A DNA stretch of 32,000 nt from Methanopyrus kandleri AV19 (GTDB lineage Archaea > JAADCQ01 > Methanopyri > Methanopyrales > Methanopyraceae): NCBI RefSeq assembly GCF_000007185.1, contig NC_003551.1, forward strand, positions 540,001 to 572,000, in the 5' to 3' direction. Made by a program: the position numbers and the translations under genes. The notes under the pieces are model-generated. The model was not told the DNA's origin. It ran no database searches and saw nothing but the letters and a program-made list of their open reading frames with translations. Below, in pieces: positions 2,479 through 23,636 of this stretch; position 1 is the first letter of the stretch; the number at the start of each line of letters is the position of its first letter.

Positions 2479-3207
2479 TCAGGCGGCCTCCCGCTGTTTC
2501 ACCCTGTCGTACAGTCCTACCCGCTCCCGCCAGTAGCGACGGGCTTCTCTCTCACCCCTCCATAAACGTACGATGCGAAGGCTGTACCAGGCCGGCCACG
2601 GGGCCAACACGTCCACTAAGATGTCCCGAACCGTTCCGGGTAACCCCCTGAGTACGCTGTCGATGATCTCTTTCCCACTGCCGGGCCATCCGAGCCGACG
2701 CAACGGGTTGAACTCGACGGACCTTAGGATCGAACAAGTCCGACTGACTCCCTCCTTCACTATCTCCTCGAGTTTTTGGAGCACTTCCGCACGATGTTCG
2801 GCAGACATCTGTGCAAGCTGCCTCAGCACCGGTACGAGGGCCCTACGGACCGCCCTCGCCACGAACCACTTCGCCTTCCTGTGCTCCGACAACCTCGGTG
2901 CCGCGAGTCGAATCGTTTCGAGCCATTCCCGTAAGAATTGGACGGACTCGTTGTCTTCTCTGCCCAGGTAGATGGTACGGCCGCGCTCGCCCTTCCGCGG
3001 CTTCCACCGAGCCTCGTAGTACGGCCCATACACCTTCCCGTTCACCGACCGATACGACGCACCCAGGAACGGTAGAGTCCCCCGTTCCAAAGTCTCCACC
3101 AAGACCCGAAACACCCGAACCAACTCCACGGGGTCTTCGGGTACTTCCATCGGAACGCCCAACCGGACCGGATCGAGTACCGGTGGCCCTCCAGGCCTGA
3201 CGTTCAT
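2479..3207 (-). CDS. uncharacterised protein, YGPYY-IYLG family (paralog of 25272-25817)
   Basis: Long ORF. I prefer ATG 3207 over the track's GTG 3222. A TATA-like ggattttaa lies upstream on the minus strand. It shares DPVE(L/R)(V/I)R, YR..(N/A)G..YGPYY, IYLG, SV.F.EWL and PW.AW blocks with 25272-25817. Confidence 0.6.
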   Translation of the reverse strand: MNVRPGGPPVLDPVRLGVPMEVPEDPVELVRVFRVLVETLERGTLPFLGASYRSVNGKVYGPYYEARWKPRKGERGRTIYLGREDNESVQFLREWLETIRLAAPRLSEHRKAKWFVARAVRRALVPVLRQLAQMSAEHRAEVLQKLEEIVKEGVSRTCSILRSVEFNPLRRLGWPGSGKEIIDSVLRGLPGTVRDILVDVLAPWPAWYSLRIVRLWRGEREARRYWRERVGLYDRVKQREAA

Positions 3208-3480
3208 TCGATTGACCCCCACTCCCAGTACCGAACGCGCTTAAAATCCTTTCGATTACGGACGCACAATCTTGGCGTTGGGCTTAAATTTGTGCGAACG
3301 TTCATTTTCCCGCCAGAACTGCTGGGACGGCCAGAACCATGGTGGTCGAGTATGGTAAGGGGGCAAATAATTTAACTGACCCGGTCGAGTTCATGGTCAG
3401 ATCAACGCTCGCACAAATGAGAATGATTGGAAAGAGAGGGGGCGGGAAGGGAGGCTCCCACCGGTCGGGGGTCAAGGCCC

Positions 3481-4767
3481 ATGAGCCGCGGCACCAAGGC
3501 CGGCATCTACCGAGATGTACTCGTTATTGAAGTTTTCCCCGGGGCGGTCCCCGACACGGGGACGCTCCGAGCCCTGAACGAGAGGGAGCGTAGGTTACTC
3601 CTAGCGGCAGCTGGATACGATGTCACTGAGTTCTGGGCTAGAAGTTTCATAGGACTGCTCTTCGACCATCCTACGCCCCTCGTTAGGGCATCCGAGAGAC
3701 ACGAGAAACTGTTACCGGAGGCGACGGTGGCGGCAGTCCGCGAGTTGTGCGATCGTATCGAACCCGAGAAGTTACGGAAGATCCGTAGCCGTGTGGCCTC
3801 CGGGGAGACCCCGAGGGAGGCCGTGCGTCGTGTCCTCGGATCCAAGATGGCCGGAGCCGTTTCCAGACTACTCGGTCGTGTTATGGGTTACGTACAGTCC
3901 GACCCGCTCTCCGTGGCCATCACCCTCCAGGTGTTAGGCACCATGATCGCAGCGGACAAACGCCTAGAGGACGTGTCGACGGTTTTGGTCGTCGTCCCGG
4001 GCCTAGAGCACGTGCACATCGACGTATATCGACTGGCACGAAGGGTTTACTCTAACCTCGTGAGGGCGATGAAGTCCCTCAGACGCTACCTCAACCCTCG
4101 AGTTAGGGTGCGGGTGTACGTAGCCACGGGAGGTAAACTGGAACATCCAGCGGGAGATTCCCCCGAGGAGGAGCTGATCGAGGCGTACGAGGAGCTCTCA
4201 AGGAGGCCCACCGTGAGACGCTTCTTCCCGGAGCGTGGCCACTTCACCGAGGTACCTTGGGACCGAGCACTCGCTGAGTTTTTTGTGCGAGTTATCCGAA
4301 GGGAGCTCCACCGTAGGTCTCTGAAGGTAGTTCGGGCTGCGAAGCGGGAGGGTGCTTCGGGTAGAGAGCTGTCTGAAGTGTACGGCAGGGAGTACGGTAA
4401 GTGGTTGAGCAGGTGGTTCAAACGCGGTCGTCGATGGCTGAACTTTCACAGACCTAGTCCGGCACTCTCCGATATCTCCTGCTGCTTCGTAGCGTCAGAG
4501 GCGGGAGTAGAAGGATACCATGAGGAGTTCTTGATAAAGGTACTCCAGAAGGTGTTGAGAGAAGTCGTCGAACGCAGGGTGACAGGACGACGGCTTGTGC
4601 GAAAAATAGTCAGGAAGATCGCCAGGGTCCTAAAGGAGGACTTCAGGGTCGAAGGGAAGATACGCGAAGGGATTCTCCACATGGCGAGGCTACTCGGTGG
4701 CAGACGCAAAGCCGCGTTAGGTGGCAAGACACTGCTCGAAGCGTTCGGGGCACCTCCACCGAGTTGA
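3481..4767 (+). CDS. large Arg-rich orphan protein, no recognisable domain
   Basis: 1.3 kb uninterrupted ORF. ATG 3481 follows a purine-rich ggaagggagg run, whereas the track start 3427 is TTG. No Walker, nuclease or recombinase motif seen. Confidence 0.55.
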   Translation: MSRGTKAGIYRDVLVIEVFPGAVPDTGTLRALNERERRLLLAAAGYDVTEFWARSFIGLLFDHPTPLVRASERHEKLLPEATVAAVRELCDRIEPEKLRKIRSRVASGETPREAVRRVLGSKMAGAVSRLLGRVMGYVQSDPLSVAITLQVLGTMIAADKRLEDVSTVLVVVPGLEHVHIDVYRLARRVYSNLVRAMKSLRRYLNPRVRVRVYVATGGKLEHPAGDSPEEELIEAYEELSRRPTVRRFFPERGHFTEVPWDRALAEFFVRVIRRELHRRSLKVVRAAKREGASGRELSEVYGREYGKWLSRWFKRGRRWLNFHRPSPALSDISCCFVASEAGVEGYHEEFLIKVLQKVLREVVERRVTGRRLVRKIVRKIARVLKEDFRVEGKIREGILHMARLLGGRRKAALGGKTLLEAFGAPPPS

Positions 4768-5063
4768 GGGTATCTTCGGACGGTAACCCCACGATCGTGA
4801 GCGGCGGAGGTGCCGACAATTGTTACGATTTCAATAACATTTGAATATCGCAACGAAAATTCTTTTACTTGCAGTTAATTCAGAGCCCGATATACAGTTA
4901 TTCATCGAGCTAATTCCTCTACTTTCATTGAGTGAACGAGGGTAATAGTAGACGGTTATGGCGCGCGATGGCAGATAAGTAACCAAATAACGTCCTTTTT
5001 TATTTGGACTTCTATTCGCCAACCTTCCACAGCCGAGAGTGTGAAACTGCGGGCGCGAGGAAG

Positions 5064-5954
5064 ATGGACGTGAAGACGTTAGTCGGAGAGTACTACGCCT
5101 CACTTCCCAGCGGCGTGTTACGAGAGTTCGTGGAAGACCCGAGCTCCCGCGAGTGGGCGTACACCTTCCTAAAGGGACGGGATATCGTATTCACCCGAAA
5201 GCGGAGGTTGGACGAGGTCTCAGGGTTCTTAGAGCTGTATCACTCGACTGGGAAGTTCAAGAACCCGAAATCGTGGGAGGGACTCCTCGGCTGGGATCTG
5301 GTGATCGACGTGGACGCGGAGCTTCCGGAGGAGCCCGAGGCGTTCCTCAAATCGCTGGGGAGGCTACTCAAGGATGTAGTGATAGCATGCGACGAGTTAC
5401 GTCGGGCGTTAGGGTTCCCACGACCGGACGTGGTTAATTTCTCTGGATCCAAGGGGTTTCACGTGAGGTACTTCGACAGCACCGTGCGACGGTGGCTGAG
5501 ATGGGACTTACACGAGCGTCGAGGTATAAAGCCGGGCGAGATCATCCAGCGGGTGGGTCGTGGAGTCGTATGGTTGGCACGTGAGGGTTTCGTGGCTGGG
5601 GACAGAGTGCGTGCACTCCGCGAGGGGCTCTTGGATGACTCGATGTACGATCTCAAGAGACTGATCCGATGCGTCGGATCGATGAACGTCAAGTCGCTAC
5701 TCCCCGCAGTGCCGGTGTGGTCGCGAGAGGGGGGTCGGTGGGTGGACTTTCGGGACGAGGTCCTAGGAATGAACGATTTGGAGCTGGGATGCCTGGTCGC
5801 CCACCGCACGTTGACCTGGCCCGGCCGTGGGGGATTGGGCGTAGTACTTTCCCGCGTACTCGACTTAGACACGGATGCAGATCCGGAGGATCCAAGCGAC
5901 TTCGTCGAGGTATGGGGGAACGTGATGTCGGTGCTGGGGGAGCTTAAGCCGTGA
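5064..5954 (+). CDS. priS: archaeo-eukaryotic primase catalytic (small) subunit-like protein
   Basis: AEP motif I is LVIDVDAE, motif II is FSGSKGFHV, and motif III region is YDLKRLIRCVGSMNVKS. N-terminal REWAYTF...R resembles the PriS REFAF block. ATG 5064 follows gcgaggaag. The stop overlaps the cofC start. Confidence 0.65.
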   Translation: MDVKTLVGEYYASLPSGVLREFVEDPSSREWAYTFLKGRDIVFTRKRRLDEVSGFLELYHSTGKFKNPKSWEGLLGWDLVIDVDAELPEEPEAFLKSLGRLLKDVVIACDELRRALGFPRPDVVNFSGSKGFHVRYFDSTVRRWLRWDLHERRGIKPGEIIQRVGRGVVWLAREGFVAGDRVRALREGLLDDSMYDLKRLIRCVGSMNVKSLLPAVPVWSREGGRWVDFRDEVLGMNDLELGCLVAHRTLTWPGRGGLGVVLSRVLDLDTDADPEDPSDFVEVWGNVMSVLGELKP

Positions 5955-7817: not shown

Positions 7818-9116
7818 ATGCTCCTGATAGTCGCGGGACACGATCCCACGGGAGCCGGTCTCAGGGCAGACATAGCGACGGCCGAAGCCCTCGGAGTACC
7901 GGCGGTTTCGCTCCCGACGTTGCTATCGCTCCAGGATGAGGGCGTCGAGCTAGTCGAGCCCGTTGACTCACGGTTCTTATCGGACTGCTTGGCCCGATAC
8001 GTCCCAAGGTGCGAGGTGGTCAAAGTCGGGGCCGTTCCTACTCTGAAAACCTTCGAGATACTGGCGAAACGGCTCCGTGACCTGACGGTAGTGTGGGACC
8101 CCGTGTTCAGAGCCGAGGCCGGAGGGGAGTTATCCGAAGCGACTCCTGAAGAGGCGTTGGAAACGTTTGGGGAAACAGTCGATATCCTCACTCCCAATAC
8201 GGAAGAGCTGAGTCAGCTGGTCGGAAGGGAGGTACGCACCACGGTGGAGGCCGAGCTCGCAGCCCGTGAGCTGGTGGAGGAGTACGGCCTGACGGGTGTC
8301 CTCGTCACGGGGGGACACTCCGTCGACAGACGCGATGTGTGGGTGCCGGCTGAGGGGAACACCATCGCGTGGGAGGTGCCTCCGGGTGAAGGCGCTCACG
8401 GGTCCGGGTGCGTGCTCTCCACGGCTCTCGCGTGCTTCTTGGTCCGCGGGTTGGACCCTGAGACCGCCGTAGAACGAGCCGTTCGGTTCGCGAGAGCGGC
8501 GGTCCGAGAGGCCCGGAACACGCCCTTCGGCCGGGTGGCAGATCCCGTCGCACAAATTCGACGTGACGCGACATTGGGGAAGGCAACGCAGCACGTGATC
8601 CGGGCACTCGAGATCATCGAGTCGGACCCGGCCTTCGCGAGGGCGATCCCACAGGTCGGAATGAACGTGGCGGAGGTCTTCGACCCCTCCCGGGGTCTTG
8701 AAGGTGTTGTGGGACTCTCGGGTCGAATCGTCCTCGACGGTGATAGACCCACCGCGGTCGGTCGCCCGGTTCCGGGGGGCTCCAAGCACGTCGGCACCGT
8801 GGCTTTGACGGCACATCGGCTCGACCCCTCGGTCCGGGCCGCGGTGAACGCCAGGTACGACGAGGAGCTTATCGAGAGGGCCCGCGATCTCGGGTTCGTA
8901 GTGTCTTCGTTCGACCGGTCGGAAGAGCCGGAGGAAGTCGACTCCACGATGGAGTGGGGCACCGAGGTGGCGTTTCGGAGGGCGGACGACACTCCCGACG
9001 TCGTCTACGACGAGGGCGACGTGGGTAAGGAACCGATGATACGCGTGCTCGGAAAGAGTGCCGTGGAGGCCGTGACTAAGCTGAGAATGTTGTTGGGATG
9101 TGTTGTTGGGGTGTAA
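7818..9116 (+). CDS. thiDN: bifunctional HMP/HMP-P kinase and ThiN-type thiamine-phosphate synthase
   Basis: N-terminal ThiD part has VAGHDPTGAGLRADI, LTPNTEEL and GSGCVLSTALA. C-terminal ThiN-like part has IPQVGMNVAE, GLSGRIV and GGSKHVGT. Confidence 0.85.
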   Translation: MLLIVAGHDPTGAGLRADIATAEALGVPAVSLPTLLSLQDEGVELVEPVDSRFLSDCLARYVPRCEVVKVGAVPTLKTFEILAKRLRDLTVVWDPVFRAEAGGELSEATPEEALETFGETVDILTPNTEELSQLVGREVRTTVEAELAARELVEEYGLTGVLVTGGHSVDRRDVWVPAEGNTIAWEVPPGEGAHGSGCVLSTALACFLVRGLDPETAVERAVRFARAAVREARNTPFGRVADPVAQIRRDATLGKATQHVIRALEIIESDPAFARAIPQVGMNVAEVFDPSRGLEGVVGLSGRIVLDGDRPTAVGRPVPGGSKHVGTVALTAHRLDPSVRAAVNARYDEELIERARDLGFVVSSFDRSEEPEEVDSTMEWGTEVAFRRADDTPDVVYDEGDVGKEPMIRVLGKSAVEAVTKLRMLLGCVVGV

Positions 9117-9732
9117 GGGAGTGAGCTCGTTCAAACGACTGCTTTACCTGGACGTGATCTCCCGAAGTCACGCGGATTTCGCCAAGAGGGTGATCAGGAG
9201 GTTAGAGCCCAAGGTCAAGGTGAGGGTGGAGTGTCTCTCGAAGTACGAGCGGGAGGACGACGCGCTGACGTACGACGGTCGGCTCAAGGACGAGGAACCC
9301 TGGAAGGAGTTCTTACGGCGGCTGGGACGTGAGAGTTCCGACACCGTGGTAGCTACCGCGCTGAACGTACCCCCCGACGTGCCGGATATATCTCCGAACC
9401 CGACCGTGGTTATAGGAGTGAACACGGGCGATCATCCCAAGACGTTGGAAGTCGCGGGTCTTGCGGACGTGGTTGTTGTCGGTCGTCGCCTATACTCACC
9501 GAGCACCGGCCCTCGTGAGTTCGGCCGCGTACGCTCGGGGAGGCTCAGGAACGGTACGGTGATCGTGGACGTCGAGGACCTCGGCCTACGGTACGCCAGC
9601 AAGGCGGTACCCGTAATCGCGGTTCTAGTGGCGGAAAACGGTGTTGACGGGTTGATCCGGGATCTCAGGCGTAACCGCGTAAGGACCCTGACGGAGGAAG
9701 TCCTCCGGGATCTATCGCTCTCCCAGGTATAA
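9100..9732 (+). CDS. hypothetical protein
   Basis: ORF with host-like codon usage. GTG 9100 overlaps the thiDN end, and GTG 9121 is an alternative start. No motif recognised. Confidence 0.45.
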   Translation: MLLGCKGVSSFKRLLYLDVISRSHADFAKRVIRRLEPKVKVRVECLSKYEREDDALTYDGRLKDEEPWKEFLRRLGRESSDTVVATALNVPPDVPDISPNPTVVIGVNTGDHPKTLEVAGLADVVVVGRRLYSPSTGPREFGRVRSGRLRNGTVIVDVEDLGLRYASKAVPVIAVLVAENGVDGLIRDLRRNRVRTLTEEVLRDLSLSQV

Positions 9733-9884
9733 GGTGACGCCAATGAAAAACAACACTGACGACACTCATATTGTCCATCCTAAGCCACCCTACCTACCTC
9801 ACACTAACATGAGCTAGTTCAACTCGACATAAGTTCGGACCGACATGATGTGACAGGTTACTACCCATTATCTCACCCGAAAAC

Positions 9885-9893
9885 TATTTATAC
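9885..9893 (+). promoter_or_regulatory. TATA-box-like element upstream of the surface-protein locus
   Basis: tatttatac sits in an AT-rich spacer about 60 nt upstream of ATG 9954. Confidence 0.4.
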
Positions 9894-9953
9894 AAGCAAT
9901 TAGTGGTCCCACGTGAGACAAACACTGGGCCACAAGGTAAACAACATGTCCCC

Positions 9954-10763
9954 ATGGGAGAGACATGCGTGAGCAAAGCGCAAATACTAGTTGTCCTTGC
10001 GATGCTGTCCGTAGGACTACAATCGGTATCAGCGGCACCAATTGAAGGACAGTTCGTCGAGGAGAATGACTACCAGTGGTCGGTTCAGGTGACCCACTGC
10101 GAGCCCACCATCGACATGACCAAGTACCCGGTGATCGTGGGCGAAAAGGCCGTCTATCTGGTGCTGTTAGATGAGAGGGACGTTCAGAAAGGAGGGGGTC
10201 TCTGTGACTACCAGCCGGCCCTGATGCCGGTACCCAAAGATTACGTGGAGATTTCCGGGAACAAGCTGTCGTTCAAAGTCAACCTGGAGGGTCAGAAGCT
10301 CCCGTTCTACTGCATGTACTTGGGTGTAGATTTCCCCGACAAGCTGGTGATGGTGACCATCGAGGAGCTGGCTAAGCACAGCGTGAGGTACGATTGGGGC
10401 TACATTAGCGAGCCGAAACCGCTGACGCTGAGCTTCCTGAGGAAGATCGTCGAGGCGTTCGAGTCCCAAGTCGACAACCCATTCCCGCACAGTGCCTTCA
10501 AGAACGAGGCCGTTTGGAATGCCGTTAGGGACACGCCGTACATCATCAGCGGACCGGTGCACGTGTCGGCCGTCGACTACGGAACTGATTACGTGGAACT
10601 GGAGATCGAGATCCCGGTGAGAACTGATGTCACCGAGTTGACAGGAACGATCGAGGTGAAGTCCGGTGAGAGTACGCAGACTCTGAGCGTAACCGGCTCC
10701 GACGTGGTCAACGGCGTCATCAAGAAGCGCGAGTATCGCAGGCCTCGGATACCGTGGAAGTGA
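9954..10763 (+). CDS. surface-protein fragment 1: signal peptide, unique N-domain, first DYG module
   Basis: MGETCVSKAQILVVLAMLSVGLQSVSAAP is signal-peptide-like. The fragment ends ...RRPRIPWK*, whereas the paralogous module reads RSARIPIIVRV. Confidence 0.6.
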   Translation: MGETCVSKAQILVVLAMLSVGLQSVSAAPIEGQFVEENDYQWSVQVTHCEPTIDMTKYPVIVGEKAVYLVLLDERDVQKGGGLCDYQPALMPVPKDYVEISGNKLSFKVNLEGQKLPFYCMYLGVDFPDKLVMVTIEELAKHSVRYDWGYISEPKPLTLSFLRKIVEAFESQVDNPFPHSAFKNEAVWNAVRDTPYIISGPVHVSAVDYGTDYVELEIEIPVRTDVTELTGTIEVKSGESTQTLSVTGSDVVNGVIKKREYRRPRIPWK

Positions 10764-11515
10764 CCATCCAACTGAGCGGTGTCGTCGAGGGGCAGCAGGT
10801 TACCGACGTTTACCCCGTGACGATCACCGTCCAGCTGGTGAAACTCAACAGCTCGGTCAACATCACCGTGGAGAAGATCACGGAGTCGGAAGCCGTGCTC
10901 CGCGTGGATTACCAGATCAACACGGAGAACTGCAGCGTGAAGTCCGTGGAGGTGAAGCTGCTCAAGGACGGTAACGTCGTGGCGTCCGAAGAGAGGTCGC
11001 AAGCCGAGGGTACGGTGAGGTTCACGGTGAACGAGTCCGGCACGTACCGCGTGGTGATCGAGGCCACGGTGGAGTGGACGACACCGTCAGGTAGACACGA
11101 GGAGAAGCTCACCTTAGCGTCCGAGGACGTGGAGGTAACGCTATCGCGACTCGAGGTAGGTGCTCCCAGCGTGAAGGTATCCGACTACGGCGCCGATTGG
11201 GCGACCCTAGAGATCACGGTACCGGTAACGGCCGTCGGATGTGAGGTGACCGGTGGAAAGGTGGAGGTGATCGAAGCGGGAACCGGACACACGCTCGCCA
11301 CGACCGAAGCGACGGTCGATAACGGAGTCCTGAAGGCTACCGTCAAACTAACCGGTCTGCGGAGCGCCAGGATCCCGATCATCGTCCGTGTGACCGCCGA
11401 GGGTAAGACGCCGACCGGCGACAGCGTAACCGCCACGGCCGAAGCGTCGGTCGAGGTACGGCTGGCGAGCGCGGAGCTCGGAGGAAGTGTCCGAGTAGAG
11501 AGTCCGCGACCCTGA
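10754..11515 (+). CDS. surface-protein fragment 2 (modules B1 and A2)
   Basis: Lacks its own signal peptide. The frame is open from 10670. Its first residues VEVTIQL continue the module interrupted in fragment 1. Confidence 0.55.
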   Translation: MEVTIQLSGVVEGQQVTDVYPVTITVQLVKLNSSVNITVEKITESEAVLRVDYQINTENCSVKSVEVKLLKDGNVVASEERSQAEGTVRFTVNESGTYRVVIEATVEWTTPSGRHEEKLTLASEDVEVTLSRLEVGAPSVKVSDYGADWATLEITVPVTAVGCEVTGGKVEVIEAGTGHTLATTEATVDNGVLKATVKLTGLRSARIPIIVRVTAEGKTPTGDSVTATAEASVEVRLASAELGGSVRVESPRP

Positions 11516-11517
11516 GA

Positions 11518-11976
11518 GTGTGCTACGAGATCCACACGCAGAACTGTACGGTGGAGTCGGTGACGGTCGAGCTGCTCAAGCGTACGGATCAGGGTTGGGT
11601 AGTGGTCGATCGACGCACGCTGAGCGCGACCAGTGACGTCGTCACGTTCCGGGTGTCCGAGGAGGGTCAGTACAAGGTTAGGATCACGGCCCAGTGCACG
11701 CACGGTGTCACGATGACGGCCGAAACCGAACCGGTGACCGTGCAGTTCCTGCCGAAGGTCGAGATCAGTGGATTCAAGGTGGTCGAAACGGACTACGGTC
11801 CGGACTGGGTAGAGCTTCGGATAACAGCTGACGTCCACGTGGAGCGGGCTGAGAAGGTGAGTGGACTAGTGGTCGTCGAGGACGCTAAGGGCAACGTACT
11901 AGGTAAGTTCCCGGTCGAGATAAGCGACCACATGGATGTTAAAGTGCGTCTCGAAGGGCTAGAAAACGTATCATGA
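11518..11976 (+). CDS. surface-protein fragment 3 (modules B2 and A3)
   Basis: The frame is open from 11500. ESATLRVCYEIHTQNCTVESVTVELL aligns with ESEAVLRVDYQINTENCSVKSVEVKLL of fragment 2, so the annotated GTG start is inside a domain. Confidence 0.55.
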   Translation: MCYEIHTQNCTVESVTVELLKRTDQGWVVVDRRTLSATSDVVTFRVSEEGQYKVRITAQCTHGVTMTAETEPVTVQFLPKVEISGFKVVETDYGPDWVELRITADVHVERAEKVSGLVVVEDAKGNVLGKFPVEISDHMDVKVRLEGLENVS

Positions 11977-12042
11977 GAGCTTCCAGTAGTCGTCAAGCTT
12001 CGGATCGAAGCTAGTAACAACTCAGGTAAGAGCTGCGGTGAA

Positions 12043-12624
12043 GTGTCGGTTAAAACATCACTGAAACTCGAGCAAACAACCACTGAGTCTAGCACAGAAA
12101 CATCCTACGAACAGGAGACATCATCGACAACTGGAGGTACTACAACTGGAGGTGCTGAGACATCCTCAGGATCGTCGGTGGAGAGTCACACAGAAGCTAG
12201 TGAATCGAGTGGAGAGAACAACGGTGGAGAAGCTGAGACTGAGACGGGTACGGTGACGACGACCCCAGCCCAGATCAAGGACCTCAAAGCCGTTGTGGAG
12301 AAGGTGAAGCCTGGACAGGTAATAATTGATGTCAGCGGTCGGGTTGAAGTGAAGCACTGTCGGTCTGAGATAATACTAGTGGTGATCTACAACGGTAAGG
12401 TGATCAAACGAATCACCGTCAAACTATCGAATGGTACTTTCAAGGAGAAGATTGAAGTCACGGGGATTCCATTGGTTGATCCAGGGCAGCTAACCGTTAA
12501 ACTCGAGGTGAAGGTATCCACTAAAATCGTGGCTTCCAGGGACATTAAAGTGGACATTCCGAGACCAGTGGGAGTAACAGTGGTGCCTGCGAAGGGTAAG
12601 AAATACACGGTTATCGTATATTAG
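12043..12624 (+). CDS. surface-protein fragment 4: S/T/E/G-rich linker plus beta-rich domain
   Basis: Same frame as fragment 3, with only TGA 11974 between them. The low-complexity stretch TTTESSTETSYEQETSSTTGGTTTGGAETSSGSS is visibly lower in GC. Confidence 0.55.
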   Translation: MSVKTSLKLEQTTTESSTETSYEQETSSTTGGTTTGGAETSSGSSVESHTEASESSGENNGGEAETETGTVTTTPAQIKDLKAVVEKVKPGQVIIDVSGRVEVKHCRSEIILVVIYNGKVIKRITVKLSNGTFKEKIEVTGIPLVDPGQLTVKLEVKVSTKIVASRDIKVDIPRPVGVTVVPAKGKKYTVIVY

Positions 12625-12633
12625 GACGGATCA

Positions 12634-12933
12634 GTGTACGTAGTTGATGAGCAAAATAGAGTTGTGGACAGTGTCGTACTGTCGAAGAAGGTGAAGCGGA
12701 TCGTAGAGGTACGCGGTGACCAGCTGGTAATCGAGACTCAGACCGGAGAACGGTGCATCCTCAAGGTCGACGAGAGAGGTGAACTTAGGCCTGTCAAATT
12801 CTTGGTGATCAAGTCGGGGAGCTACGAAGTATCAGTGGCCGGTAGTGCTAAGGCTAAGGCCAAGGCCCGCGCCACGCCGCTGATCCTGATACTACCGATC
12901 CTGCTCAGGCTAGTCAGGAGGAGCACGGCCTGA
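12634..12933 (+). CDS. surface-protein fragment 5 with C-terminal membrane anchor
   Basis: Same frame as fragment 4, separated only by TAG 12622-12624 and three sense codons. It ends AKAKAKARATPLILILPILLRLVRRSTA (hydrophobic helix plus basic tail). Confidence 0.55.
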   Translation: MYVVDEQNRVVDSVVLSKKVKRIVEVRGDQLVIETQTGERCILKVDERGELRPVKFLVIKSGSYEVSVAGSAKAKAKARATPLILILPILLRLVRRSTA

Positions 12934-12937
12934 GGCG

Positions 12938-12963
12938 TTTTTCGACGCCCTCCGTCATTTTTT
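12938..12963 (+). terminator. oligo-T terminator candidates after the surface locus
   Basis: A T5 run (12938-12942) and a T6 run (12958-12963) lie directly after the stop at 12933, flanking an imperfect GAGGCGT/ACGCCCTC hairpin. Archaeal termination uses T-tracts. Confidence 0.45.
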
Positions 12964-13008
12964 GGATCGCTTATGTCCGGCGCACGCCCACAGGTTCTTC
13001 CACCTCCA

Positions 13009-13035
13009 GAAACGTTATTCGTACCGTAACGTTTC
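13009..13035. promoter_or_regulatory. AT-rich perfect hairpin element (GAAACGTTA-N9-TAACGTTTC)
   Basis: 9-bp perfect inverted repeat between the surface locus and the methyltransferase gene. Same AAnCGTTAT...TAACGTT core as the tRNA trailer hairpins. Confidence 0.45.
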
Positions 13036-13053
13036 ACGGCGCAGGGATGCCGC

Positions 13054-13923
13054 TTGCGCCGGTATAGGATCCGTCCCACGGATTTCGTTGCTGTTGTGTC
13101 TCATTTCGAAGCGAGAGAATTACTGCGCGCCGTGAGGAAGGGTGGAGAGATTGAGATCCAGCTAGATCTAGGCCTACACTCCGGGAAAGCCCGAATTAAC
13201 GGTGATACCGTCGTTATTGAGGGTGTGGAGCTAACACGGGACGAACTGGAATCTATGACGGGATGGAAAGGCGCTTACGGACTGACTACCGATAATGTCT
13301 ACAGGATCGAGATTCGGGCTGAGCACTACTACAAGCTCCTGCCGGTAAGACCCGGCGAAGCACCGACAATCGAGATTGACGGCATCAGGATGCACCGTAC
13401 GAAGTGGACGGATCCCTGGACTGATGCCGGCGTCAAGGTGGGTAAGGTCGGGGTGTCCGAGGGAGATCGTGTCCTCGACGTATGCACGGGCCTGGGCTAC
13501 ACCGCGCTGCGGGCAGTTGAGCGTGGTGCGGAGGTAATCTCCGTCGAGAAGGACCGGAACGTCCTCGAAATCGCCGGTGCGAACCCTTGGTCGCGAGGGT
13601 TGGAGGAAGTGGAGATCCTGTTGGGGCCCGCGGAGGAAGTGGTTCCATCCCTCGACGACGAATTCGACGCTATTGTCCATGATCCTCCCAGACTCGCGAG
13701 AGCCGGGGAATTGTACTCCGAGAATTTTTATCGGGAGTTACTGCGGCTCCTGCGGCCCGGCGGTCGGCTCGTCCATTACGTCGGAGCTCCGGGGAGCCGG
13801 TATCGAGGAAAGGATGTGCTCGCAGGGGTGTCCAGGCGTCTCACACGCGTAGGGTTCGAGGTGGTGGACGTGGACCGAAGGTGGGGGTTGGTTACAGCTG
13901 AGAAACCCAGCGCTCGAGTGTAG
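13054..13923 (+). CDS. SAM-dependent methyltransferase (archaeal COG2521-like)
   Basis: Motif I is VLDVCTGLGYTA, and a DPPR motif (VHDPPRLA) plus LRPGGRLVHYVG follow. The substrate is unknown. Confidence 0.7.
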   Translation: MRRYRIRPTDFVAVVSHFEARELLRAVRKGGEIEIQLDLGLHSGKARINGDTVVIEGVELTRDELESMTGWKGAYGLTTDNVYRIEIRAEHYYKLLPVRPGEAPTIEIDGIRMHRTKWTDPWTDAGVKVGKVGVSEGDRVLDVCTGLGYTALRAVERGAEVISVEKDRNVLEIAGANPWSRGLEEVEILLGPAEEVVPSLDDEFDAIVHDPPRLARAGELYSENFYRELLRLLRPGGRLVHYVGAPGSRYRGKDVLAGVSRRLTRVGFEVVDVDRRWGLVTAEKPSARV

Positions 13924-22039: not shown

Positions 22040-22300
22040 GCCGTTGGCCCCGGCTCATAAGAGCCACCGATTCAGGGCACTGTCCGACCGGTCTCAGGGT
22101 GGCGGTGCACCCGATTACCCCCTACCTCTCCCGAGCTCCCCATGGGAGCTGCGGTTCATCGGTTCGGGGTTATGGGTGGCTTGTGATTCGAGGGCAAGAC
22201 AGTGGTACAGTTCGAACCCGTTAAGTACTCCAGCTCCGGTTCGGGAGGGTCATCGGTGGCCCTCGTTAGCAGGTTATAGGCCCTCACGATGTCAGCATTC
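22040..22300 (-). ncRNA. candidate omega-RNA (TnpB guide RNA scaffold) overlapping the tnpB 3' end
   Basis: GC content jumps at the tnpB 3' end. Stacked GC-rich stems are AGCTCCC/GGGAGCT, GCCACC/GGTGGC, CGAACC/GGTTCG, GAGGG/CCCTC and GGCTC/GAGCC. The position matches where omega-RNAs map. Boundaries are guessed. Confidence 0.3.
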
Positions 22301-23580
22301 ATAGTTTTTCCACACTTTGAGCAGATCACTAGCCCTCCGTTCCGTTTGCATTTACTTCTGCACATCGGACATGTTACCGAAGTGTACGCAGGACTAGCCT
22401 CAATGACCTCTATACCGTACTCTTCACATTTCCGTTTGATCTCCCTTATAATTCGCTTGTAGGCCCAGTATGCTAGCTCCCCATGCAGCTTTTGGCGTAA
22501 GCCTTTAAGATCCTCAATAACTAATAGCGTTACCTCACGACTGAGCAAGATCTGAACTAGTTTGCTCACCAAATGCCGGATCGCGTCCATGATCGCCCGG
22601 TGAGCTTTAACGTAATACTGTTTCAGACGGTGAGAGAAATTAGCCCCATTTTTGTTGAGTCGCCGCTGTTCTTTCGGGGCCTTGATTTTTCTCCAGTATG
22701 ACCACCGAGACCATGCGTCACCCCATCGTACCAGAACCGGTTTCTTCCCATCTGAGAAATAAACAGCGGCGAATATGCGGCGGCCGATGTCAACAGCTGC
22801 GGCGTTCTCACAGTTATTTCCAGTCCGAGGTATAGGTCGAACCCGACCATTTGGAGTTAGCCGAGAGACGAGCCAGCTTTCGCCCTTATTCACCTTCATA
22901 TTCAAAGTAAGGTAATGAGCGTTATCTGCCCAACTATAGACGATCTCGCTACGCCCGAAGAACTCCTTGCCGTCGTCTCCGTTTAGGATAATCTTATCCG
23001 CTCTTTTGGGTTCTTTCACTCGGTTCGGGTGCCAGGGAAACCATCCCACGAACTCGAGCCTGACACCACGGCCGCGACCACGCTTAAATCCGACGTTGGG
23101 GAGGTTGTCGACGACATCGCCAAGTCCTAAGATTTCAATAACGCCACGATGTTCCAATGGATCGTACTCGAACCGTCGGATCTGGGAAGCTAGGAATACG
23201 AATCGCGGTTCCCTACCGAGCGGACCTTTCCAGTATCGTGGAGGTTGACAGATCGTTCTACGTTTGTTCGACTTTACCTCTTTGATTTGTTTGAAATAAG
23301 ATCGCCAAGCTTCAGTGTTCTTTTCCCCAATTGCGACTACTGTTTGAGTACCTAAAATTGGCCCATATTCTCTATAAATTCTCCTGAATGTAAGTTCTGA
23401 CCTAGAAACGGCGACAGCATCCAACTTGCCTTTGAAGAAAAATCGACGGCGAAGGTAGTTTAACTCGTTATACACGGCGGTACATCTGTCACTGAGGAAA
23501 ATCAGGTCTCTGCGGTACCCCTCAGGGCCGACAATTTTGAGGGTGATCGAGCGGTATCTATAGTCGGACCTAAGTGGCAC
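22156..23580 (-). CDS. tnpB: TnpB (IS605 OrfB-type RNA-guided RuvC endonuclease)
   Basis: RuvC-I is AAVDIGRRIFAAV, RuvC-II is LLVIEDLKGL, the zinc ribbon is CPMCRSKC...CSKCG, and RuvC-III is NADIVRAYN. The start is either GTG 23580 or, per the ORF track, 23634. Confidence 0.85.
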   Translation of the reverse strand: MPLRSDYRYRSITLKIVGPEGYRRDLIFLSDRCTAVYNELNYLRRRFFFKGKLDAVAVSRSELTFRRIYREYGPILGTQTVVAIGEKNTEAWRSYFKQIKEVKSNKRRTICQPPRYWKGPLGREPRFVFLASQIRRFEYDPLEHRGVIEILGLGDVVDNLPNVGFKRGRGRGVRLEFVGWFPWHPNRVKEPKRADKIILNGDDGKEFFGRSEIVYSWADNAHYLTLNMKVNKGESWLVSRLTPNGRVRPIPRTGNNCENAAAVDIGRRIFAAVYFSDGKKPVLVRWGDAWSRWSYWRKIKAPKEQRRLNKNGANFSHRLKQYYVKAHRAIMDAIRHLVSKLVQILLSREVTLLVIEDLKGLRQKLHGELAYWAYKRIIREIKRKCEEYGIEVIEASPAYTSVTCPMCRSKCKRNGGLVICSKCGKTMNADIVRAYNLLTRATDDPPEPELEYLTGSNCTTVLPSNHKPPITPNR

Positions 23581-23636
23581 GGATAGTACCCCTTGACGTG
23601 AGCAGGTTCTTGGTCGCAGCGTCTGAACCAACAATC

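Follow-up and report, generated by a model that had tools for sequence, protein, structure and literature searches.

Positions 9969 to 12933 of a 32,000-nucleotide stretch of the Methanopyrus kandleri AV19 chromosome (NC_003551.1, positions 540,001 to 572,000; hereafter the window) carry five consecutive open reading frames (ORFs) which read together like one large surface protein, and the question raised by this locus is whether it is a single gene that has been broken, a single gene that is still expressed across its interruptions, or a set of separate genes. The initial annotation of the window had joined the five ORFs into one protein of about 1000 amino acids (aa) and proposed a recently decayed adhesin or S-layer-type gene, uncorrected sequencing errors, or expression gated by recoding or phase variation. 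Our analysis favors the first of these: with a probability of roughly 0.87, 9969-12933 is a strain-specific pseudogene of one 993-codon accessory Methanopyrus gene belonging to a genus-restricted family, "MK-6".

The frame pattern that had been described (0 to 2 to 1, then two in-frame stops) was confirmed by the ORF table and by three-frame translation. Frame 0 runs to a TGA at 10761-10763 and frame 2 to a TGA at 11513-11515, after which frame 1 continues through a TGA at 11974-11976 and a TAG at 12622-12624 to the final TGA at 12931-12933. The joined frames amount to 993 codons, the same length as an intact allele of the gene, and the reconstruction of one protein from the five ORFs holds. 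In exact-sequence look-ups the fragments AAM01806-AAM01809 were placed on the 1,694,969-bp chromosome of M. kandleri AV19. The ORFs correspond to MK0591-MK0594 plus one later RefSeq call, and AAM01806-08 bear in UniProt and GenBank the name "specific for M. kandleri with repeats, MK-6 family".

An intact allele and the polarity of the lesions

By cluster look-up of the exact AV19 fragment sequences two uninterrupted proteins of 993 aa were found, P0010 (WP_456483194.1, from M. kandleri GCA_053992195.1, locus L001) and P0013 (from JGI metagenome 3300033146, locus L002); a word-indexed protein search gave only the more distant P0001. Gene order is the same in L001 and L002 (ThiD/ThiN fusion, MK0590, intact gene, methyltransferase, DUF123 protein, PTPS-related protein), with the uninterrupted 993-codon ortholog standing at the syntenic position between the MK0590 homolog and the methyltransferase. 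The DNA of the intact allele is 96.6% identical to that of AV19 at the locus and 96.8-97.0% identical over 13-15 kb. The third allele, from Methanopyrus sp. GCA_054007815.1 (P0001, with a longer gene call P0014; locus L006), has an amino-acid identity of 66-69%. Genome-contig scans with the reconstructed protein or with the alignment, and metagenome-contig scans with the intact protein or with a stretch of 29 nt that does not vary among the four alleles, gave no further alleles.

In a DNA alignment of AV19 with L001 and L002 the interruptions were resolved base by base into four lesions, two short deletions and two nonsense codons (Table 1). The second deletion falls in the first strand of module B2 (codons ~516-520) and removes the codons for EVSS. 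In the outgroup L006/P0001 the gene is in frame at lesion 1, where it reads ITKRVRLSQ, as well as at lesion 2, where it reads VEGITTESATLRV. Since the outgroup keeps the reading frame and has a sense codon at each of the four sites, the lesion states of AV19 are derived. Thus, the comparison with orthologous loci that had been suggested did return an intact syntenic allele of 993 codons, and together with the polarity of the lesions this supports the proposal of a recently decayed adhesin or S-layer-type gene.

Two details to which weight had been given are uninformative. It is correct that every ORF boundary lies inside a module, as the lesions are situated in A1, B2, A3 and the start of the C-terminal domain, but this is expected by chance because the modules occupy almost the whole protein. 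Likewise, the fragments are indeed otherwise perfectly open, but they are so by construction, the fragments being defined by the lesions. As a side observation, the gene has only four G/T differences, of which one belongs to the TGA at 11974-11976 and another to the TAG; ~86% of the remaining differences are transitions.

We propose that a first knock-out of the gene on the branch to strain AV19 was followed by further hits, the whole series comprising the 4-nt deletion, a 13-nt deletion mediated by microhomology, a tandem GA-to-TG change giving TGA, and a G-to-T change giving TAG. As fragment 1 ends in 9 out-of-frame codons followed by TGA, AV19 could export at most the first 254 codons plus this 9-codon tail, and the later fragments, which have neither an export signal nor an anchor context, would not be expected to function. 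Function has therefore probably been lost in AV19.

Strain-specific pseudogenes of large surface or adhesin genes with multiple lesions are a well-known category in prokaryotic genomes. Like them, the AV19 gene has frameshifts and nonsense codons that are derived, a close relative in which the ortholog at this locus is intact, pieces annotated as separate hypothetical proteins, and outright loss of the accessory gene in other lineages. Nothing essential differs. It may be noted that the host is a hyperthermophilic archaeon with few sequenced strains and that the MK-6 family, as named when the genome was first annotated, was defined in part by these pieces.

Resequencing and the alternatives to decay

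As the AV19 genome of 2002 is an old Sanger assembly, and as an intact 993-codon version is present in other assemblies, it might be suspected that the interruptions are artefacts and that the true gene is one intact ORF. Logan assemblies of the runs ERR9765783 (PacBio Sequel II), ERR9765777 (Ion S5) and ERR9765749, which are part of project PRJEB52977, contain the same five ORFs with all four lesions; two of their alignments to the window, of 8459 and 7937 nt, are free of mismatches, and the third, of 5430 nt, has a single gap. This project consists of mock communities that were physically mixed from purified genomic DNAs and sequenced on several platforms (PMC9652401), and M. kandleri AV19 is listed in its supplementary tables with an abundance value for each of three mocks (PMC9652401). 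A third-party assembly (HII70184-HII70188) encodes the same fragments. In addition, deletions of 4 and 13 nt and a double substitution are unlike homopolymer miscalls or base-calling slips, and the intact alleles differ from AV19 by ~3.4% throughout, which marks them as another strain and not as corrected AV19. An artefact is thus extremely unlikely. The suggestion of uncorrected sequencing errors is refuted by assemblies of AV19 DNA from several platforms that reproduce the lesions, and the single intact ORF that resequencing might have restored did not appear for AV19 in the three runs.

Real lesions might still be bypassed by programmed recoding, in which a full-length protein would be made through two -1 frameshifts and read-through of the TGA (for example as selenocysteine) and of the TAG. 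Both frame changes are in the -1 direction, the fragments are otherwise open, and M. kandleri has selenocysteine machinery. In archaeal genes that use recoding (for example Sulfolobus fucA1, and selenocysteine (Sec) and pyrrolysine (Pyl) genes) adjacent ORFs in -1 register and in-frame TGA or TAG codons rebuild one protein in the same manner. However, no X XXY YYZ heptamer is present in the overlap zones 10660-10765 (frame 0) and 11400-11516 (frame 2), the shifts coinciding exactly with 4 and 13 nt that are missing relative to a 96.6%-identical in-frame allele. A search of 9600-13400 at E-values up to 1 gave no selenocysteine insertion sequence (SECIS) or other Rfam match, and both stop positions are Glu in the intact allele (GAA and GAG), not Cys, Sec or Pyl, and sense Glu in the outgroup too. 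No relative conserves any of the four sites (0/4) as a site of recoding, orthologs being in frame at both shifts. Unlike the archaeal recoding genes, the AV19 locus lacks a slippery site, a SECIS and conserved interruptions, and an uninterrupted allele exists; we consider recoding very improbable.

Just as improbable is a reversible phase variation, by which the gene would be a contingency locus that happened to be switched off in the sequenced culture. Surface proteins are a class that often phase-varies, and some of the changes at paralogous MK-6 loci are 1-nt changes in short G/C runs. In the window gene, all four lesions lie outside repeat tracts, and the sole run of at least five identical bases (GGGGG at 10194) is unaffected. 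Furthermore, assemblies of the later runs show the same AV19 state as the genome of 2002, as compared at the assembly level, and four separate lesions would be unable to revert together. Gating by recoding or by phase variation, as had been put forward, thus finds no support in heptamers, repeat tracts or Rfam matches, in the Glu codons at the stop positions, or in the state of the gene, which is the same in every AV19 assembly.

Substitution patterns were used to gauge the decay. Between AV19 and the intact strain the flanking genes show a synonymous divergence (dS) of 0.03-0.09 and a ratio of nonsynonymous to synonymous rates (dN/dS, omega) of 0.07-0.35; the window gene has a dS of 0.065 and an omega of 0.31. 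The AV19 branch carries 21 synonymous, 10 nonsynonymous and 2 nonsense changes (omega ~0.16), against 15 synonymous and 24 nonsynonymous changes on the branch of the intact allele (omega ~0.53; Fisher p = 0.018), these being small counts polarized by the distant outgroup L006, with 13 changes left unresolved. The changes are concentrated in the linker and the C-terminal part (fragment 4 omega 0.53), and the functional allele may be under diversifying or relaxed selection.

Several points weigh against the pseudogene reading. The raised dN/dS that is expected of a pseudogene branch is not seen, the omega of AV19 (~0.16) being lower than that of the intact allele (~0.53). It follows that constraint acted on the AV19 branch during most of the period after the split and that the inactivation is recent, so that four lesions within a short time represent a mild excess. 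A promoter-like element and a Shine-Dalgarno-like motif are still intact in AV19. Lastly, the comparison genomes GCA_053992195.1 and GCA_054007815.1 could be isolates or metagenome bins, and their own lesions are apparent ones, read from the assemblies.

The number of lesions can itself be set against expectation. Nonsense changes make up 2.7-3.8% of the possible point changes in the gene. The probability of at least two among 12 nonsynonymous events is 0.08-0.20, and for Poisson means of 0.3-1.0, which correspond to plausible neutral periods, it is 0.04-0.26. Seven indels were counted in the 15 kb compared. Five of them are at gene ends or in intergenic DNA that totals ~0.95 kb (~5 per kb intergenic), and the only ones in a gene body are those of 4 and 13 nt. 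At the intergenic density, two indels in 3 kb correspond to a neutral period of roughly one quarter to one third of the AV19 branch. The locus was, moreover, noticed precisely because it is conspicuously broken. Four lesions are thus at most a mild excess over neutral decay, and the view that they are unusual for it was not borne out, given nonsense probabilities of ~0.04-0.26 and two indels that fit the local intergenic density.

It may also be asked whether the gene has undergone functional fission, so that its pieces, or at minimum fragment 1 with its export signal, now serve as independent proteins that keep an old role or have gained a new one. In favor of this, fragment 1 still has an intact signal peptide, start region and promoter-like element, fragments start with GTG within a few bases of the preceding stops, and the nonsynonymous rate on the AV19 branch is low. 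Yet the breaks cut through beta-sandwich domains, which would leave a partial fold at both fragment ends, fragments 2-5 are without export signals, and nearby GTG "starts" are to be expected where GTG is abundant in Val-rich, GC-rich sequence. Nor does the same split occur in any other lineage, where the gene is intact, differently broken or missing. We therefore hold fission to be improbable, if somewhat less so than recoding or phase variation, and retain the reading of a pseudogene.

Table 1. Fragments, lesions and signals of the AV19 gene (window positions), and disruptions at paralogous loci (positions of the locus named).
Feature	Position	Strand	Description
Fragment 1 (MK0591, AAM01806, 264 aa)	9969..10763, frame 0 (alternative ORF starts 9903/9954)	+	Signal peptide 9969-10034, N-terminal domain, first part of A1
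Fragment 2 (MK0592, AAM01807, 253 aa)	10754..11515, frame 2	+	Rest of A1, B1, A2, start of B2; without signal peptide
Fragment 3 (MK0593, AAM01808, 152 aa)	11518..11976, frame 1	+	B2 and most of A3; ends at lesion 3
Fragment 4 (frame-1 continuation)	11977..12624	+	End of A3, Ser/Thr/Glu-rich linker (~12070-12264), C-terminal beta domain; ends at lesion 4; called ORF 12043-12624 (WP_148679545.1, 193 aa)
Fragment 5	12625..12933	+	Conserved C-terminal domain and Pro-rich hydrophobic segment with Arg tail (12874-12930, TPLILILPILLRLVRRSTA); called ORF 12634-12933 (WP_148679546.1, 99 aa); original MK0594 (AAM01809, 89 aa) starts at 12664
Lesion 1	Between 10728 and 10729	+	4 nt (GTGT/TGTG) absent relative to intact AAGAAGC[GTGT]GCGAG; frame 0 to 2 in A1, codons 255-256
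Lesion 2	Between 11499 and 11500	+	13 nt (GGAGGTCAGCTCC) absent, GAG microhomology at flanks; frame 2 to 1
Lesion 3	11974-11976	+	GAA (Glu675) to TGA by two adjacent substitutions (GA to TG); in A3
Lesion 4	12622-12624	+	GAG (Glu891) to TAG, G to T; start of conserved C-terminal domain
BRE/TATA-like promoter element (archaeal; cgaaaac..tttataca)	9878..9894	+	Read from the sequence; ~75 nt upstream of start codon
Short inverted repeat (GGCGT..ACGCC), then T-run	12934..12965	+	Read from the sequence
Paralog 2 (AAM02186), AV19-type	L008: gene 4001-5860, upstream 2581-4000		ATG start lost; 1-nt G insertion at L008 4050
Paralog 2, GCA_053992195.1	L007: 3001-6063		1020 codons; apparent 1-nt deletion near 3' end, predicted to remove the C-terminal membrane anchor
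Tandem locus, gene X1	L012 (AV19-type); L013 (GCA_053992195.1)		1-nt deletion in L012; apparent in-frame stop in L013
Tandem locus, gene X2	L012; L013		Broken in L012 and apparently in L013; apparent 5-, 22- and 1-nt deletions in L013

Architecture of the intact protein and its flanking signals

In the 993-residue intact protein the top eight 13-residue hydropathy windows, all with a mean of at least 2.0, are found only at residues 4-20 and 975-989, that is, in the signal peptide and in the C-terminal TPLILILPILLRLVRRSTA. This agrees with the initial annotation, in which a signal peptide had been assigned only to the first ORF and a hydrophobic anchor only to the last. The module order A-B-A-B-A was confirmed as well, with local-alignment z-scores against shuffled sequences of 9.6 (A1/A2), 11.1 (A2/A3), 5.7 (A1/A3) and 16.8 (B1/B2).

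An AlphaFold2 model of the intact sequence places five consecutive all-beta (beta-sandwich) domains at residues 198-704, with predicted local distance difference test (pLDDT) scores of ~70-88, followed by a disordered linker at 709-796 and more beta domains at ~800-950. Searched with Foldseek, the modeled protein matched tandem beta-sandwich arrays (complement C5, alpha-2-macroglobulin and the adhesin repeat 6xi3), and the five modules resemble tandem arrays of the macroglobulin, Ig and FN3 types. The N-terminal domain of ~170 residues (~25-195; window 9954-10560) was modeled with confidence from a six-sequence alignment as a beta-barrel with helices (pLDDT 86; predicted template modeling score (pTM) 0.80). 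It had no significant Foldseek match in the PDB (best E 0.02, TM ~0.2) and is common to three other Methanopyrus proteins, P0042, P0034 and P0032. Sequence searches of the PDB gave no match, and no Pfam or NCBIfam model scored above threshold, the best in Pfam being SdrD_B with 18.6 bits against a cut-off of 29.7 and EMP24/GOLD with 23.2 against 25.9. The sorting-signal and S-layer models of NCBIfam were not matched at E-values up to 1.

From this architecture, the intact product would be a secreted protein of the cell surface with an adhesin-like role. It would begin with a Sec-type signal peptide, followed by the N-terminal domain of ~170 residues, which has no recognizable relatives and is presumably the interacting end, and by a stalk of five beta-sandwich domains (A-B-A-B-A). 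A Ser/Thr/Glu-rich linker, which is probably glycosylated, would lead to two small beta domains and to a C-terminal Pro-rich hydrophobic segment with a basic tail that would hold the protein at the cell envelope.

Like bacterial MSCRAMM, SdrD-B and Cna-B surface proteins, the intact protein combines a signal peptide with a distinct N-terminal domain, repeated beta-sandwiches that form a stalk, and a hydrophobic C-terminus with a basic tail, and a paralog in Methanopyrus sp. has been named "MSCRAMM family protein" by NCBI. Unlike MSCRAMM, SdrD_B and Cna_B proteins, it scores below the curated Pfam cut-offs, has no NCBIfam match and carries no LPXTG at its C-terminus. Methanopyrus, unlike the hosts of MSCRAMM proteins, is an archaeon with a pseudomurein wall, and the N-terminal domain has no structural match. 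A second likeness is to archaeosortase substrates (PGF-CTERM) and archaeal S-layer glycoproteins, in which a Thr/Ser-rich linker also lies upstream of a hydrophobic C-terminus followed by Arg/Lys. Such a layout belongs to archaeal envelope proteins that are processed and lipid-anchored. In contrast to PGF-CTERM targets there is no PGF motif, the segment being short and Pro-rich, of the form P-[IL]-[IL]-(x)-P-[IV]-[IL]-P plus an Arg tail (TPLILILPILLRLVRRSTA).

The C-terminal domain and this type of tail are also present in paralogs. The C-termini of the family (window 12874-12930, P0027, P0026 and the L006 allele) have a short Pro-rich hydrophobic motif and then an Arg run: TPLILILPILLRLVRRSTA, APILPVIPIVRRRRR, VPILPVIPISRRRR and TPLIPVVPIPRRSVKRV. 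The motif is too short and too Pro-rich for a normal membrane helix and is without a match to known sorting-signal models. Together with the Arg run, it may be an envelope sorting signal specific to Methanopyrus.

With regard to the start of the gene, ATG 9954 had been taken as the start codon, but GTG 9969 is the likely one, since this codon is ATG in the intact allele and is preceded by a Shine-Dalgarno-like motif (GGGAGAG/GGGGGAG); position 9954 is AAG in the intact allele. The start codon is thus GTG in AV19 versus ATG in the intact allele. The element at 9878..9894 may act as the promoter, and TTTATACAA recurs upstream of the L006 gene in the distant Methanopyrus sp. The inverted repeat and T-run downstream of the gene likely mark the end of the transcript as a putative terminator; in the T-run AV19 and the intact allele differ by 1 nt at 12960. 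Upstream, a 7-nt unit AAACAAC (window 9741-9754, ~9747) is present in two tandem copies in the strains with the intact allele and in one copy in AV19.

The G+C content of 12043-12624, in the 3' part of the gene, is 0.49, against 0.56-0.62 in the 5' part and a mean of 0.61 in the window. The neighbors are housekeeping genes, coding for the ThiD/ThiN fusion, the small protein MK0590, a class I methyltransferase, a DUF123 protein and a PTPS-related membrane protein. At 9095-9116 a 1-nt deletion and a substitution in AV19 abolish the TAA stop of the ThiD/ThiN gene, which in the other strain overlaps the ATG of the next gene. As a consequence, ThiD/ThiN is 5 residues longer in AV19 (432 vs 427 aa), and MK0590 begins with GTG. 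Elsewhere in the window, 22156-23634 on the minus strand encodes a 491-aa protein of the TnpB/IS605 OrfB type (Cas12f1-like TNB domain, E 6e-16) within a patch of low G+C (0.53-0.55 vs 0.61), and is probably a mobile element.

Dispensability of the gene and the MK-6 family

The gene is dispensable in the genus. In two other Methanopyrus sp. (GCA_054039895.1 and GCA_054039215.1; loci L010 and L011) it is absent, with ~220 nt separating the MK0590 homolog from the methyltransferase and no remnant of the gene found by tblastn. The L006 allele has apparent lesions of its own, independent of those in AV19: an in-frame stop just past the signal peptide, and deletions of 4 nt at codon 810 and of 1 nt at codon 933.

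In an exhaustive phmmer search strong E-values came only from Methanopyrus relatives, besides weak generic Ig-like matches (titin, SdrD-B). AAM02186, AAM02327/8 and relatives were recovered at E-values of 2e-61 to 5e-7, and they are by this homology members of MK-6. The idea that the "MK-6" label covers only the fragments in the window was accordingly rejected, as other loci belong to the family. These include a second MK-6 gene (paralog 2, AAM02186) and a tandem locus (L012/L013) that contains AAM02327/AAM02328. At all four MK-6 loci examined, one or both of two M. kandleri genomes carry a disruption, and the positions differ (Table 1). Hardly any MK-6 gene appears intact in any one genome.

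These four differently broken loci, the absence or breakage of the window gene in other species and the raised nonsynonymous rate of its intact allele have led us to consider that the whole MK-6 family of large surface-protein genes is under recurrent, lineage-specific knock-out in Methanopyrus. We regard this wider reading as unlikely, though less so than fission of the gene. If it were true, the pattern could reflect a selective advantage in shedding or varying envelope proteins that are exposed, for example in escape from viruses or in altered attachment. Lesions might then accumulate from 3' to 5', silencing a harmful unanchored product, and intact alleles might persist in the population by recombination, giving on/off variation at the population level without a dedicated switching machinery. 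A literature search on MK-6 or on Methanopyrus pseudogenes found nothing relevant.

The inactivation of the AV19 gene is an ordinary biological event that involves no new mechanism. Its main use lies in correcting the annotation, for which it means that the five "hypothetical proteins" WP_011018961-3 and WP_148679545/6 (MK0591-MK0594) are pieces of one dead gene. Several "MK-6 family" members are fragments, MK0591-MK0593 deriving from the window gene and other MK-6 entries having likewise been found to come from disrupted loci, and repeats inside larger proteins account for part of the mutual similarity among MK-6 entries. AV19, the type strain and the Methanopyrus reference, would lack an envelope protein of ~105 kDa that other M. 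kandleri populations can still make, a difference of relevance to studies of the Methanopyrus cell envelope, attachment and virus-host interactions. The intact allele shows the true architecture of this genus-specific surface protein, with an N-terminal domain of unrecognized fold, and the locus also points to a family of frequently broken surface-protein genes.

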